A stretch of DNA of 64,000 bases from Escherichia coli (GTDB lineage Bacteria > Pseudomonadota > Gammaproteobacteria > Enterobacterales > Enterobacteriaceae): the NCBI RefSeq assembly GCF_003790525.1, contig NZ_CP033635.1; one strand, written 5' to 3'. Below the pieces are notes generated by a model. It searched no databases and was not told the DNA's origin. It saw only the letters and a list, made by a program, of their open reading frames with translations. A program made the position numbers and the translations under genes. Below are positions 4,522 to 30,355 of the stretch, in pieces. Numbering within the stretch: position 1 is the stretch's first letter; the number at the start of each line of letters is the position of its first letter.

Positions 4522-5562
4522 ATGATCACCATTCGTGATGTAGCGCGTCAGGCTGGCGTCTCTGTGGCAACGGTTTCCCGAGTGCTCAATAACAGCACGC
4601 TGGTCAGTGCCGACACGCGTGAAGCAGTAATGAAAGCCGTGAGTGAGCTGGATTATCGACCAAATGCCAATGCCCAGGCGCTGGCAACTCAGGTTAGCGA
4701 CACCATTGGCGTGGTGGTGATGGACGTTTCTGATGCGTTTTTCGGCGCGCTGGTAAAAGCGGTGGATTTGGTCGCCCAGCAGCATCAGAAATACGTGCTA
4801 ATCGGCAATAGCTATCATGAAGCGGAAAAAGAGCGTCACGCCATTGAGGTGTTAATTCGCCAGCGTTGTAATGCGTTGATTGTTCACTCAAAAGCATTGA
4901 GTGATGATGAACTGGCACAATTTATGGATAACATTCCCGGTATGGTGTTAATCAACCGCGTTGTGCCGGGGTACGCCCATCGTTGCGTTTGCCTGGATAA
5001 TCTCAGCGGTGCCCGAATGGCGACGCGCATGTTGCTGAATAACGGTCATCAACGTATTGGTTATCTTTCTTCCAGCCACGGCATTGAAGATGACGCCATG
5101 CGTAAAGCAGGCTGGATGAGTGCGTTGAAAGAGCAGGATATTATTCCGCCGGAAAGCTGGATTGGCACTGGCACGCCGGACATGCCGGGCGGTGAGGCGG
5201 CGATGGTTGAACTGCTGGGGCGCAATCTACAACTTACCGCTGTATTTGCTTATAACGACAATATGGCTGCTGGCGCACTGACAGCATTAAAAGATAATGG
5301 CATTGCGATTCCGTTACATCTCTCAATCATCGGTTTCGATGATATTCCCATCGCCCGTTACACCGACCCGCAATTAACGACCGTGCGTTATCCCATTGCT
5401 TCAATGGCTAAATTAGCCACCGAACTGGCCTTGCAGGGGGCAGCAGGCAATATTGATCCTCGTGCCAGCCACTGTTTTATGCCAACGTTAGTGCGTCGTC
5501 ATTCTGTCGCAACGCGCCAGAATGCGGCGGCGATCACTAACTCAACAAATCAGGCGATGTAA
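4522..5562 (+). CDS. galS: LacI/GalR-family repressor of the mgl operon
   Basis: N-terminal [27 protein letters not shown]; start set at the second ATG to give the expected length. Confidence 0.85.
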
Positions 5563-15632: not shown

Positions 15633-16580
15633 ATGCGTGTGTTACTGGCACCGATGGAGGGTGTACTCGACTCTCTGGTGCGTGAATTGCTGACCGAAGT
15701 TAACGACTACGATCTGTGCATCACCGAGTTTGTCCGCGTGGTGGATCAACTGCTGCCGGTAAAAGTCTTTCATCGCATTTGCCCTGAGCTACAAAACGCC
15801 AGCCGGACACCATCCGGTACGCTGGTGCGCGTGCAGTTGTTAGGTCAGTTCCCACAATGGCTGGCAGAGAATGCCGCCCGTGCGGTCGAGTTAGGTTCCT
15901 GGGGCGTGGATCTCAATTGCGGCTGCCCGTCGAAAACGGTTAACGGTAGCGGCGGTGGGGCGACGTTACTCAAAGATCCTGAACTCATCTATCAGGGTGC
16001 AAAAGCGATGCGCGAAGCTGTACCGGCGCATTTGCCCGTCAGCGTAAAAGTGCGTCTGGGCTGGGACAGCGGTGAGAAGAAATTTGAAATCGCCGATGCG
16101 GTTCAACAGGCTGGTGCTACAGAGCTGGTGGTGCATGGGCGGACGAAAGAGCAGGGTTACCGCGCGGAGCATATTGACTGGCAGGCGATTGGCGAGATTC
16201 GCCAGCGGCTGAATATTCCGGTGATTGCCAACGGTGAAATCTGGAACTGGCAGAGTGCGCAACAATGCATGACGATCAGCGGATGCGACGCAGTGATGAT
16301 TGGTCGCGGGGCGCTCAATATTCCCAACCTGAGCCGGGTGGTAAAATATAACGAACCGCGAATGCCGTGGCCGGAGGTAGTTGCTTTGCTGCAAAAATAT
16401 ACCCGTCTGGAAAAGCAGGGCGATACCGGGTTATATCACGTAGCGCGGATTAAACAGTGGTTGAGTTATTTGCGTAAAGAATACGATGAAGCAACAGAAT
16501 TATTTCAGCATGTTCGGATGTTGAATAATTCCCCTGATATTGCAAGGGCTATTCAGGCAATTGATATCGAGAAACTCTAA
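15633..16580 (+). CDS. dusC: tRNA-dihydrouridine synthase C
   Basis: Dus TIM-barrel motifs (LAPMEG, NCGCP); start at [10 protein letters not shown]. Confidence 0.85.
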
Positions 16581-16810
16581 GAAACATAGTGATGTTTTTT
16601 GACAATGTGTTAGCTCTTTATCAATAGGCCGCACGGTTGTTTGGTGGCGTCAAAATCGCCGAGGCGTTCCCTGAAGGCCGGGGCAGCCCACATGGATGTG
16701 GGCTGAGGGCGCGTTTTACAGGGATAATGAGATGGACGCTCCAGATTTTACGGTATCAAAGTACCAGACTGGATCGTTGCAATACGTCCTGAAAAATTAG
16801 GAGCGTCCAC

Positions 16811-17836
16811 ATGAAAGTATCAACTCTTGGTATCGACCTGGCAAAGAACGTTTTTCAGCTTCATGGTGTCGATCATGAAGGCCATACTATTTTGCGTAAA
16901 AAGCTCACCCGGGCTAAGTTTGTTCAGTTTGTGATTCAACTGGAACCTTGTCTGATTGGCATGGAAGCCTGCTCATCCAGTCATTATTTTGCGCGATTAT
17001 TCACCCGCTATGGTCATGAGGTAAAACTCATACCTCCGCAGTATGTGAAGCCTTATGTGAAAACGAACAAGACGGATGCAACAGATGCTGAAGCAATCTG
17101 CGAAGCGGTAACACGTCCGAATATGCGTTTTGTTCAGATAAAAACCGAAGAGCAGCAGGCCGTTTTAGCGTTACACACTGAACGGGGAATACTTATCCGT
17201 GAGCGGATTGCCTGTGCCAATAGTTTAAGAGCCACACTTGCTGAGTTTGGTATTACGATTGCGGCCGGACAAAACCATTTAACCCGTGAGCTGCCAGCCA
17301 TTCTGGAGGATGGCGAAAATGGTTTATCTCCCTTTGTCAGAACCAGCATCTACAGACAGTCTAAACATATCCGGGAACTTGAAGAACAAGTTAAACAGGT
17401 AGAAGAAGCTCTGGCCTCCTGGTATAGAACGCAGGAAGCCTGCCAGAGAATGGCCAAGATCCCGGGGGTTGGCATGCTAACGGCCACTTATGTGGTAGCA
17501 GCAGTGGGTAATGCCCGACAATTCAGTACCGCAAAGCAGTTCGCTTCATGGCTGGGGCTGACACCAAAGGAACATTCCAGCGGCGGGAAACAGCAACTGG
17601 GAGGGATCAGCAAACGTGGAGATGGATATTTCCGATACCTGCTGGTTCACGGCGCACGCGCACTTACCGCCAGGGTCAACCGAAACGGCGCGGTTGAGAA
17701 GAATTCCTGGCTTCAGGGACTCCTTGAGCGGAAGCACTACAATGTAGCTGTTGTCGCCATGGCGGCAAAAACAGCGAGGATCATGTGGTCAATGTTGTCA
17801 CACAATACTGAATATCAACCTCGGCAGCTCGCCTGA
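16811..17836 (+). CDS. IS110-family DEDD transposase/recombinase
   Basis: 341 aa; N-terminal LGIDLAK...GMEACSSSHYF...TDATDAEAI RuvC-like motifs; C-terminal IPGVG...LGLTPKEHSSGG...ISKRGD Transposase_20-like region. Confidence 0.85.
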   Translation: MKVSTLGIDLAKNVFQLHGVDHEGHTILRKKLTRAKFVQFVIQLEPCLIGMEACSSSHYFARLFTRYGHEVKLIPPQYVKPYVKTNKTDATDAEAICEAVTRPNMRFVQIKTEEQQAVLALHTERGILIRERIACANSLRATLAEFGITIAAGQNHLTRELPAILEDGENGLSPFVRTSIYRQSKHIRELEEQVKQVEEALASWYRTQEACQRMAKIPGVGMLTATYVVAAVGNARQFSTAKQFASWLGLTPKEHSSGGKQQLGGISKRGDGYFRYLLVHGARALTARVNRNGAVEKNSWLQGLLERKHYNVAVVAMAAKTARIMWSMLSHNTEYQPRQLA

Positions 17837-18112
17837 CACAAGGTCAGTCAATCTGACGAGGTGCTGAAAAAAAGTTAACGTCCTGGTAGGTGCAGGTGAC
17901 TTCAGAAGATGGCAAAACAGGTAAGACCGCAGGCAGGATACACCGAGAGGTAACAAGGGCAAGTTAGCCCGTAGAGGATGATTGGTACCTGCCTGGCGGA
18001 TTTCATCATGGTTCGGGATAAAAATCCCATCAGAAACCGGATATATGGCTGCACCTACCCGTTTTATTACATAACTGAAGAAAGCATTGCATTCCGGGAG
18101 CGTCCATATATG
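17837..18112 (+). ncRNA. Candidate guide (bridge/seek-type) RNA region in the IS 3' non-coding tail
   Basis: No credible ORF; by analogy with IS110/IS1111 elements that encode a target/donor-pairing ncRNA in their longer non-coding end. Exact RNA ends not determinable here. Confidence 0.3.
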
Positions 18113-18311
18113 TTACCTCGCGCCCGACCCGGTAGCCGCAAGGGATAAGCCGAGGGTACCGCGCAGCGGCGATTTTGTTCGCCAGAGCCCGGGGGGCAGG
18201 GGGCGGCGGCGATTGGCCGCCCCCTGCGCGCTCCTTGCGTCAGTGGCAATATGTGGCTTAGCTCATGAAAGGAGCGCAACAAGATGATGAATCAACATAT
18301 AACAACATTTT

Positions 18312-18340
18312 AAAAAAAGCCTGACATTGCGCCAGGCCTT
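18312..18340 (-). terminator. Rho-independent terminator of aqpZ
   Basis: On the minus strand GCCTGGCGCAATGTCAGGC followed by a T7 run, just past the aqpZ stop. Confidence 0.5.
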
Positions 18341-18349
18341 CTGCGTTAA

Positions 18350-19045
18350 TTAATTACGCTTTTCCAGCAGGGTCCGGTAAATCAGACCACCGATAATACC
18401 GCCGACAATTGGCACCACCCAGAAGAACCACAGTTGTTCTAACGCCCAGCCGCCCTGGAAGATAGCAACCGCGGTGCTGCGCGCCGGGTTAACAGAAGTG
18501 TTAGTCACCGGAATACTGATTAAGTGAATCAGGGTTAAGGCCAGACCAATAGCTATCGGCGCAAAACCTGCCGGAGCGAATTTGTCGGTTGCGCCGTGGA
18601 TCACTAACAGGAAGCCCGCACTCAATACCAGTTCAACTACCAGCGCGGAAAGCATGGAATAACCGCCTGGCGAATGCTCGCCATAACCGTTAGAAGCAAA
18701 ACCGCTGGCTGCCGCGTCAAAACCTGTTTTACCACTGGCAATTAAATACAGCAGCGCCGCCGCAACAATACCGCCGACAACCTGGGCAATTACGTAGCCA
18801 ACGACTTCTTTTGCCGGGAAACGTCCGCCAGCCCATAAACCAATAGTGACCGCCGGGTTAAAATGACCACCAGAAATATGACCAACAGCAAAGGCCATCG
18901 TCAGAACGGTCAGACCGAATGCAAGCGCCACGCCGGCAAAACCAATGCCTAATTCCGGGAAGCCTGCGGCCAGTACGGCACTACCACAGCCACCAAAAAC
19001 AAGCCAGAAAGTACCAAAACATTCAGCTGCTAATTTTCTGAACAT
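18350..19045 (-). CDS. aqpZ: Aquaporin Z
   Basis: 231 aa with two NPA motifs; start at [11 protein letters not shown]. Confidence 0.9.
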
Positions 19046-28530: not shown

Positions 28531-29571
28531 TTGTTGATGAAAGGTGCAGAAACGACGAAACCCCGCACTGTTGGAGCAGTAACGGGGCTTCTAACCACCA
28601 ACGATAGAAAGCGTATCGAGGTAGCTATGTTAAATCATACCACACACCCGCAAGGGCGGGACCCGCACAACCTGAATAAATACATCTGGCGTTTTATCGC
28701 CCTGAGCACAGCACAACCACGCGTTATTACCATCGGGGCCACCAGCGAACAGGAAGCCCGCCAGCAATCCCCGACTGGCTGGGTGATGGTATTGGCCTCC
28801 AGATTTCATCATCGCTGTTTGTTTTTTGTCTGTCTCTCCTCGGGGTATGGGGTTGTGCCGTTCCAGCGTATGCGGGGCCGTTCACTGATGAAGCGCTCAA
28901 GCGGGAAATTATCGGATGGCGCGGGGGGCCGTACCCGTCGTTCCCGCCTCCGCTGGCGTACCACGCTGGCTTCGGTAATTTCCCCTGATTCGTTTATTTT
29001 CATAAAGAGTTACCTCCGTGCTCATCTGCTCTGGCGTTTTCTGTTTCTGATGAAGACTTACAGCGGTAGCGGCGTATCTTATCTTAAGATTTGGTTTAAT
29101 TTCTCGTGTCTGGCTTTAATGACGGCGCGTAATAATATCTGTCGCTGCTTTGTGTTTACGTCCAGAACTGTGGGGGATAATATGGATTTGTTCATGGTGC
29201 TCACCTGTAATGCATTGCGTCGTGATGCCTCATATCACGGCGGCGGTTATCGTTTTGTTCGGATTCGTCCCCTGATGAAATCCTCAAGCGGAAAATGTTC
29301 AGGGCGAGGTAATTCAGGAGGGACAGGGTTATTACTCATGCGCTCACGTTCCCTTGCGGCGCGTGCAGCATTCAGCTTTTGCAGGAGCACATCAAACGGC
29401 ACCCCCTTATCATTCATGGTCCCCCCTGTATATCCGTTGTTAACTGATGGTTACAGGTGCATTTTTCGCACAAACTATTTAATCAACACATCCGACCACA
29501 TTATCAGAGAGCCGGAATATACAGGGGCAATAATCCCGCATTTGCTGGCCTACGCACAGCTTACCGCTGAT

Positions 29572-29859
29572 ATGGCACTGAATGAGGCCAAAGCCATCCT
29601 GATTGCTGATTGTGAATATGGGGTTATGCGTGATGATCGTTTTAATGCCCTGAAACAGGAATTTGATGGCACACCGGAAGATACAGATATTGCGCTGTTA
29701 TGTGTTGCTGACATGGTAAAAGCTGCATGTTTTTTACTGGAAACCGCCGAACATTCAGGAACGGGTAGCGATATTCTCAATATTGCGTCGGACTATGCTG
29801 AATATGTGGCAGAGGCGCGTTACAGAAGAAAATTCCAGGAGGTGGTTAGCCATGAATAA
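29572..29859 (+). CDS. Hypothetical protein (start uncertain; TTG at 29542 is an alternative)
   Basis: Only protein-like portion of the long stop-free frame; ends with an AGGAGG RBS for the next gene. Confidence 0.4.
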   Translation: MALNEAKAILIADCEYGVMRDDRFNALKQEFDGTPEDTDIALLCVADMVKAACFLLETAEHSGTGSDILNIASDYAEYVAEARYRRKFQEVVSHE

Positions 29860-30025
29860 TCATGAAGCGCACTTACCTGTAGTGCTTAATGTGCCATCTG
29901 ATTATACGGGGCGCGTTTTGATATTTCTGGATAAAGGGAAAGTGAAATCGCAATGCCGCCTTAGAAATAATGAGGTTATTGGTTCTCTGGCTTTTTTTCT
30001 GAAGCCTGTATTCGCGCCGGAATAA
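29851..30025 (+). CDS. Hypothetical small protein (57 aa)
   Basis: ATG overlaps the upstream stop (CATGAATAATC) with an AGGAGG SD 8 nt upstream. Confidence 0.4.
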
Positions 30026-30055
30026 AGCCGGAATCACTGACAGGAAAATAAAACC

Positions 30056-30355
30056 ATGAAAAAGAAAAATTCTGGCTTTACTGCCAGCGGCCTCGCTCGG
30101 CCTGAAATCCGTCCCGGCTATATTTTCCGTGATAACTACGGCGGTACGGTAACGATTAAAGGCGTGGCAGAACGGCGCATCACCTACCGCCATGAAGGTT
30201 ACGAATATGATTGCGTGATGCCTGTTTATCAGTTTGTGCGTGATTTTTCTCTTGTGCAGGCCGTACCGCGTAACGTGCCCACCAGCAGGGAGAAAGCACG
30301 CGCCAATATTCAGAAGATGAAAACCATGATTAACGGATTCAGGGGTAAAAAATGA
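30056..30355 (+). CDS. Hypothetical protein
   Basis: 99 aa ORF; 4-bp overlap with the primase start. Confidence 0.5.
   Translation: MKKKNSGFTASGLARPEIRPGYIFRDNYGGTVTIKGVAERRITYRHEGYEYDCVMPVYQFVRDFSLVQAVPRNVPTSREKARANIQKMKTMINGFRGKK

Follow-up and report, generated by a model that had tools for sequence, protein, structure and literature searches.

The break in gene order between dusC and aqpZ in the 64,000-nt stretch of Escherichia coli DNA analysed here (the window) is genuine, and it marks one junction (J1) of a 1.40-Mb terminus-spanning inversion, probably caused by homologous recombination between two inverted copies of an insertion sequence (IS), together with the TRIP1 repeats that hold them. 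The inversion is already known (Wang et al. 2017, BMC Genomics 18:268, PMC5372343), as is rearrangement between TRIP1a and TRIP1c (Li et al. 2024, Genes 15:236, PMC10888264). Our analysis adds how the IS sits inside TRIP1 and at which nucleotide it inserted, the frequency of the junction among 5,426 complete genomes, and the interval of the crossover.

Anatomy of the dusC-aqpZ junction

Two blocks of K-12 gene order meet in the window with opposite polarity. The left block starts with cirA at the beginning of the window and continues through yeiG, folE, yeiB, galS, mglBAC, preAT, yeiS, sanA, cdd and yohKJ to dusC, which is the K-12 order in descending direction from ~2.245 Mb to 2.229 Mb, the K-12 position of dusC. 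The right block (aqpZ, ybjD, ybjX, macAB, cspD, clpS and clpA) follows the K-12 order in ascending direction from 0.915 Mb. The initial annotation had described the cirA-dusC block as inverted relative to an aqpZ-serS block; the opposite reading directions in K-12 bear this out, while serS lies outside the window. Beyond clpA lies a genomic island spanning at least 35 kb, and a search for a tRNA at this island boundary found none. The two genes that border the junction are as follows:

15633..16580, plus strand, dusC (yohI) coding sequence in the RefSeq annotation, the final gene of the block left in its K-12 place
18350..19045, minus strand, aqpZ coding sequence, the first gene inside the inverted 1.40-Mb segment, at 0.915 Mb in K-12

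Positions 16581-18349 are 100% identical to E. coli SMS-3-5 (NC_010498.1, 2313555-2315323, minus strand), in which RefSeq gives the order dusC, IS110-family transposase, aqpZ. The RefSeq annotation and the comparison with K-12 agree with the initial annotation that an IS110-family element links the 3' flanks of dusC and aqpZ. However, 16581-18349, first taken as the IS, is the entire dusC-aqpZ intergenic region; the junction lies there as claimed, but the IS proper is confined to 16726-18109. It is flanked on both sides by parts of a TRIP1 repeat:

16624..16725 (102 bp), plus strand, left half of TRIP1, the TRIP1c-type proximal flank, from alignment to K-12 TRIP1c and TRIP1a
16726..18109, plus strand, IS110-family, IS1111-type IS of 1,384 bp, the copy at J1, with boundaries from comparison with empty sites
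16732..16742, plus strand, left subterminal inverted repeat ATGGACGCTCC (11 bp), the reverse complement of 18097-18107
16811..17836, plus strand, transposase (DEDD, IS110 family) of 341 aa, WP_000868868.1, from the list of open reading frames and NCBIfam NF033542
18097..18107, plus strand, right subterminal inverted repeat GGAGCGTCCAT (11 bp), pairing with 16732-16742
18110..18279 (170 bp), plus strand, right half of TRIP1, the TRIP1a-type distal flank, from alignment to K-12 TRIP1a

The TRIP1 repeat was reportedly described by Rudd in 1999. K-12 carries an intact, GC-rich TRIP1 of ~270 bp both on the 3' side of dusC (TRIP1c) and between lysO and aqpZ (TRIP1a), in opposite orientations on the chromosome and free of any IS. 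The two halves in the window match these K-12 repeats and stand at the published fixed distances from the stop codons, with TRIP1c 43 bp after that of yohI/dusC and TRIP1a 70 bp after that of aqpZ (Li et al. 2024, PMC10888264). The same study reports that TRIP1a and TRIP1c are 94% identical and inverted in most E. coli. As for the structure of the repeat, TRIP1 forms two hairpins with AUGGAU and CAGGGAU loops, and five compensatory pairs occur across three TRIP1 variants. These loops recall the TwoAYGGAY RNA of Rfam (RF01731), which we considered and set aside as a resemblance only, as intact K-12 TRIP1a scores 30.6 bits (E = 0.007), under the gathering threshold of 43. A scan of positions 16000-19000 of the window against Rfam 15, covering the IS non-coding region and the split repeat, returned nothing at E <= 1.

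Comparison with the empty K-12 sites fixes the insertion point. The left TRIP1 half ends ...TTTTACAGGG-AT and the right half begins AT-GTTACCTCG, so the insertion site reads ...TTTTACAGGG-AT|GTTACCTCG... with AT on both sides of the IS. This AT is the only sequence common to the two sides, and no long target duplication is present. The IS follows CAGGG-AT in three different TRIP1-type loci (dusC-yohP, lysO-aqpZ and yegH-asmA), at the same TRIP1 position and in the same orientation each time. At yegH-asmA, where many genomes carry the IS, the repeat is a diverged TRIP1-like one with a ~60-bp identical core, and the nucleotide at which the IS inserted is exactly the same. One insertion point at three independent loci shows that the IS has strong target specificity.

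The element has the traits of the IS1111 group, namely a DEDD transposase, subterminal inverted repeats and a non-coding region on the 3' rather than the 5' side of the transposase reading frame (273 bp 3', 85 bp 5'), as listed among the hallmarks of this group (Siddiquee et al. 2024, PMC11187229). Its transposase matches NF033542 with 362 bits (cut-off 140) over residues 6-333. The closest annotated relatives by protein identity are an IS from a Klebsiella plasmid (51%), IS5708 (44%), ISShdy1 (42%) and IS4321/IS5075 (40%). If the IS ends were joined, they would read TTGCAT-16 nt-TATAAT, a potential promoter sequence of the kind reported for the ISEc11 junction (PMC11187229). A literature search for the transposase accession gave no match, and a search for an IS110 inversion in phylogroup F found only an unrelated Shigella preprint.

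Reciprocal junction, census and exchange interval

The reciprocal junction predicted in the initial annotation, with the lysO side joined to the yohP/mdtQ side, is present in SMS-3-5 at 909.8-911.6 kb, in the order lysO, second IS copy, yohP, mdtQ. This second copy is also 1,384 bp long, sits at the identical TRIP1 position and is inverted relative to the copy in the window, in line with the IS-mediated inversion first proposed. Eight SNPs, confined to IS positions 77-994, distinguish the two copies. Both junctions, dusC-aqpZ and lysO-yohP, also occur in IAI39, and the MRY15-117 lineage likewise has the reciprocal junction with an inverted second IS copy. The reciprocal junction, the inverted IS copies kept at both ends and the flanks that are recombinant relative to an outgroup are together what homologous recombination would leave behind.

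The geometry of the inversion conforms to the expected symmetry about the terminus. The segment between the two IS copies of SMS-3-5 is 1,402,400 bp long, and dif, at position 1,656,736 of the SMS-3-5 record, is separated from the inversion ends by 745 kb and 657 kb, supporting the initial view that the endpoints are roughly symmetric about the replication terminus. GC skew is mostly positive on either side of the junction, as such an inversion predicts.

The census used an IS-free chimeric query of 1 kb from the dusC side and 1 kb from the aqpZ side. The dusC-aqpZ junction was found in 85 of 5,426 complete E. coli genomes, including IAI39 and a third lineage represented by MRY15-117, and a query with the IS included showed that 84 of these 85 genomes carry the IS there. 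The IS itself occurs in 179 of the 5,426 genomes, and its median copy number in them is two. A match count of 173 genomes refers to the IS in any TRIP1 copy and not to the dusC-aqpZ junction, and flank-anchored queries were used in its place. Among the ~5,240 genomes that lack the IS, most of which have both repeats, the dusC-aqpZ junction is absent. As few as one or two events may underlie the 85 junction genomes, so the association between the IS and the inversion is phylogenetically confounded.

KFu014 is the single genome with the dusC-aqpZ adjacency and no IS, the arrangement that would have spoken for an ancestral gene order. Its flanks are 100% identical to those of SMS-3-5, the hybrid TRIP1 is perfectly restored, and lysO-IS-yohP is kept at the other junction. 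Because of this flank identity and the IS kept at the other end, KFu014 is a case of secondary, precise IS loss, and the reading as an inversion stands. The lysO-yohP junction was scored in 51 genomes, compared with 85 for dusC-aqpZ. In MRY15-117, the sole such genome inspected, an IS3-family element lies inside the IS copy of the reciprocal junction (J2), and the resulting gap exceeds the joining limit; at least 11 more genomes list an IS3 and an IS110 transposase beside lysO.

Genomes with the IS in K-12 gene order provide the uninverted counterparts. Eight genomes have lysO-IS-aqpZ and ten have dusC-IS-yohP. Five genomes, CE10 among them, show the K-12 gene order with an IS copy at each of the two loci. 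The other four, taken as non-F from their lower flank identity, weigh against IS recombination as the cause, being uninverted although they have both copies. CE10 has serotype O7:K1 by its name, which is also the serotype of IAI39. Apart from their arrangement (K-12 order in CE10, inverted in IAI39), the junction sequences of the two are identical.

SNP haplotypes of six IS copies from SMS-3-5, IAI39 and CE10 narrow down the place of the exchange. In CE10, the transposase is WP_000868869.1 in the IS copy beside dusC and WP_000868863.1 in the copy beside lysO; IAI39 encodes each of these proteins next to the same left flank as CE10, with the right flanks swapped. In all three genomes, the IS copy at the dusC flank is of haplotype A and the copy at the lysO flank of haplotype B. 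The markers at IS positions 356, 388, 947, 974 and 994 stay with the left flank throughout, and the next informative site, 130 bp into the right TRIP1 half, travels with the right flank. The exchange therefore falls within one interval:

17720..18239, no strand assigned, exchange interval of 520 bp, comprising IS positions 995-1384 (390 bp) and the first 130 bp of the right TRIP1 half

As 130 bp of this tract belong to TRIP1, the crossover may have taken place either in the IS or in the repeat. The haplotypes nevertheless show that the divergence between the CE10 and IAI39 arrangements postdates both IS insertions. From the CE10/IAI39 pair, together with the inverted SMS-3-5-like and MRY15-117-like lineages, we infer at least two independent exchanges.

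Origin of the inversion

Homologous recombination between the two IS copies would proceed from TRIP1c and TRIP1a repeats that were already inverted and on opposite replichores before any IS arrived. The 1,384-bp IS would have inserted at the identical nucleotide of TRIP1c (3' of dusC) and TRIP1a (between lysO and aqpZ), and by landing in two inverted TRIP1 copies the IS copies would have come to lie in the required inverted orientation. A homology of ~270 bp at 94% identity would thus have become an inverted homology of ~1.65 kb at >99% identity. Host homologous recombination would then have flipped the intervening DNA, producing dusC-IS-aqpZ, the junction in the window, and lysO-IS-yohP. With dif almost midway between the ends, the arrangement would roughly preserve strand polarity and the balance of the replichores, and so persist in the lineage. 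We infer the dependence on RecA, the order of these events and the role of the IS, rather than TRIP1, as the critical homology.

TRIP1 alone could have supplied the homology, with recombination between TRIP1a and TRIP1c making the inversion and the IS copies being passengers that mark the same sites. The two repeats are inverted and 94% identical in most E. coli, a quarter of the exchange tract (130 of 520 bp) is TRIP1, and in one genome J1 consists of a hybrid TRIP1 without the IS. Further TRIP1-TRIP1 rearrangements (a/e, a/b and b/c) are listed by Li et al. (2024), who ascribe them to TRIP1 itself. Yet the junction is missing from the IS-less genomes although most of them have both repeats, the IS occupies all but one of the 85 junctions, and the IS-free case derives from the SMS-3-5 lineage with its IS still at J2. 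The haplotypes also put both IS copies in place when CE10 and IAI39 diverged by exchange, and the IS offers about five times more homology, nearly perfect. We therefore consider an inversion through TRIP1 alone unlikely, and recombination between the IS copies with their TRIP1 flanks the probable cause.

The other two explanations carry still less weight. Engineered bridge recombinases can invert DNA, and the RNA-guided IS110-family recombinase could in principle have inverted the segment directly, by site-specific exchange at the two right IS-end/flank junctions. The right-end/flank junction at 18109/18110 falls within the mapped exchange interval, and guide-like segments of the IS match it (see below). 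However, a bridge-RNA/seekRNA synapse, as in IS621, pairs four different half-sites, and two right-end junctions provide only right-donor and right-target half-sites; four-half-site pairing is also reported for ISEc11 (PMC11187229). Both products retain complete IS copies, as a plain homologous crossover predicts, and none of the data requires the enzyme, which makes direct inversion by the recombinase very improbable. An assembly error across the repeated IS, the alternative raised in the initial annotation, would fit the usual situation for assembly breaks, with a 1.4-kb element present twice in the genome. It is contradicted by the recurrence of the junction in 85 complete genomes, which many laboratories assembled independently on many platforms, by the matching reciprocal junction and by two independent publications that report the inversion, and its probability is negligible. 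Recombination between the inverted IS copies thus accounts best for the junction.

The event is of a textbook type and already published, and knowledge of it changes little by itself. Its interest lies in the route: a site-specific, probably RNA-guided IS can turn short, diverged repeats into long, perfect inverted homology, and its insertion would thereby predetermine where a megabase inversion takes place. Published a/c rearrangements described as TRIP1-mediated deserve re-examination for an IS. Where an IS coincides with a synteny break, the best test is to look for the reciprocal junction and for relatives whose sites are empty.

Guide-like segments and comparison with known systems

The 3' non-coding region of the IS contains features that may mark a guide RNA gene. 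In its minimum free energy (MFE) fold, a predicted stem pairs 17927-17937 with 17987-17999 and encloses an internal loop and a small hairpin, an architecture common to IS4321 and the Klebsiella relative. The relevant segments are as follows:

17837..18109, plus strand, 3' non-coding region, candidate seekRNA/bridge-RNA gene, from the MFE fold
17947..17955, plus strand, candidate right-target guide GAGGTAACA, a 9-nt complement of TGTTACCTC
18041..18047, plus strand, segment ATATATG, identical to the junction of the right IS end and right flank

The 5' side of the internal loop reads GAGGUAACA and is complementary to TGTTACCTC, which lies directly to the right of the IS, after the A of the AT on that side. 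A right-flank complement of 9 nt is reached in 21 of 3,000 shuffles. At the same place, IS4321 (9 nt, AAAACGGAA) and the Klebsiella relative (8 nt, TTTATTCA) each carry a complement of their own right flank, which differs from element to element. Past the small hairpin, ~26 nt on, IS4321 and the Klebsiella relative each contain an exact match to the left flank of their own insertion; in the present IS, 4 of 7 positions match at the place expected for a left-flank guide. Another ~95 nt on, all three elements have an identity of 7-8 nt to their own right-end/flank junction. These matches are good but incomplete evidence for targeting of the seekRNA/bridge-RNA type.

A broader reading would make this an uncharacterised IS1111-type RNA-guided IS programmed for the apical loop of TRIP1, which, through its copies in TRIP1a and TRIP1c, created a 1.4-Mb terminus-spanning switch; the TRIP1a/1c rearrangements of the literature would then really be IS-driven. 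The switch would be reversible, as both orientations occur in close relatives (CE10 and IAI39). We hold the case for and against this reading to be evenly poised.

The published inversion of SMS-3-5 and IAI39 is the same event, with the same strain, endpoints and size as here. Wang et al. (2017, PMC5372343) described a 1.402-Mb inversion in SMS-3-5 bounded by an inverted repeat 'E' of 1,606 bp that encodes transposase WP_000868863.1, found the same pair in IAI39 and grouped CE10 with the K-12 order. Li et al. (2024, PMC10888264) counted 68 aqpZ-yohI and 58 ybjE-yohG junctions in 6,725 genomes, showed the SMS-3-5 and IAI39 inversions and credited them to TRIP1. The repeat was thus recorded merely as a transposase in the former study, and in the latter IS110 appears only in the reference list, with the IS absent from the text. 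In the literature searched, we found no description of the fixed-nucleotide insertion of this IS into TRIP1, of its IS1111-type guide-like matches, of the near-complete association between IS and inversion or of the crossover interval.

Among known elements, the IS most resembles the IS1111 group (IS4321/IS5075, IS5708, ISEc11, ISPa11 and ISKpn4), with which it shares a DEDD transposase of ~340 aa, a long 3' non-coding region, subterminal inverted repeats and orientation- and site-specific insertion into a hairpin-forming repeat. With IS4321 it further shares a non-coding segment complementary to the right target flank at the same place. It differs from the compared IS1111 elements in its protein (40-51% identity) and in its target, the TRIP1 apical loop CAGGG-AT-GTTACCTC. 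IS621 (1,279 bp, 326 aa), an IS110-group element with REP targets in E. coli, belongs to the same superfamily and likewise has a fixed insertion point in a small palindromic repeat between genes. Its RNA, however, is encoded 5' of the gene and it has no subterminal inverted repeats, whereas the non-coding region of the present IS is 3'.

Inversions symmetric about the terminus or origin are familiar from rrnD-rrnE in E. coli W3110 and from the IS-rich genomes of Shigella and Yersinia. Like these rrn and IS inversions, the 1.40-Mb inversion would involve an exchange of the RecA type, with long inverted repeats on opposite replichores as its substrates, both copies kept and strand bias preserved. 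Unlike them, its homology would have been seeded by a site-specific IS in two pre-existing copies of a short repeat.

The IS110-family element at the two inversion junctions

In strain KFu014, the hybrid TRIP1, a ~270-bp chromosomal repeat split in the window by the IS110-family element (IS), is perfectly restored without the IS at the dusC-aqpZ junction, and the other junction still has its IS. Judged from sequence, the KFu014 site looks like a natural precise excision of the IS that occurred later than the inversion. In the MRY15-117 lineage, the 5' part of the IS copy at the reciprocal lysO-yohP junction is interrupted by an IS3-family element, which probably inactivates this copy. This interruption accounts for the shortfall at the lysO-yohP junction, scored in 51 genomes against 85 with the dusC-aqpZ junction.

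NZ_CP091712.1 2926898-2928897 (KFu014): IS-free hybrid TRIP1 at the dusC-aqpZ junction
Locus L008:10405-13049 (MRY15-117): IS3-family element inside the IS110-family copy, lysO-yohP junction

Fold, distribution and relatives of TRIP1

Three TRIP1 variants share a common fold with five compensatory pairs, and the model places AUGGAU and CAGGGAU in two hairpin loops, with the IS insertion point predicted at the apex of the second hairpin. Intact K-12 TRIP1a, the lysO-aqpZ copy, matches the TwoAYGGAY RNA (RF01731) of Rfam at a sub-threshold level (30.6 bits, E = 0.007, gathering score 43). In O157:H7 and some other genomes (matches H136-H144), the alignment of the lysO-side query ends at ~850 of its 1,177 bases, which suggests that these lineages lack TRIP1a at lysO-aqpZ and that the TRIP1 repeat is itself polymorphic.

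A diverged TRIP1-like repeat lies between yegH and asmA, a locus absent from the list of five TRIP1 loci in Li et al. 2024 (PMC10888264). It shares an identical ~60-bp core with TRIP1 and carries compensatory substitutions in the outer stems. This repeat often houses the same IS, and a RelE/ParE-HTH remnant adjoins it.

L003:7037-7176 (K-12 TRIP1a; corresponds to window 16650-16725 and 18110-18190): TRIP1 segment with the sub-threshold RF01731 match
L013:3900-4000 and 5385-5560, and likewise in L014: diverged TRIP1-like repeat, yegH-asmA intergenic region

Genomic island after clpA

Window 28538-64000: genomic island, 35 kb or longer, immediately following clpA
Window 28996-30204: tyrosine integrase in the island

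The island cargo comprises glycosyltransferases and an ABC-type polysaccharide export pair, together with a type I R-M subunit, an Ag43-type autotransporter and numerous IS fragments. The stretch from clpA to the integrase yielded no tRNA gene.

Candidate left-target guide of the IS

Window 17970-17985: candidate segment for the left target flank, reading AGAGGAU
L018:1-700 and 700-2000: IS110-family relative at 51% identity, present twice on Klebsiella quasipneumoniae plasmid pWP3-W18-CRE-02_3

AGAGGAU matches the expected left target flank, CAGGGAT, at four of seven positions. Such a weak match may reflect either a candidate guide that tolerates mismatches or a guide for which TRIP1 is not the optimal target. 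The two plasmid copies of the Klebsiella relative stand in tandem ~130 bp apart, each followed by an identical flank (TGAATAAATAAGATTTC...). At the equivalent place, IS4321 and the Klebsiella relative match their own left flanks over 6-8 nt, compared with 4/7 in the present IS.
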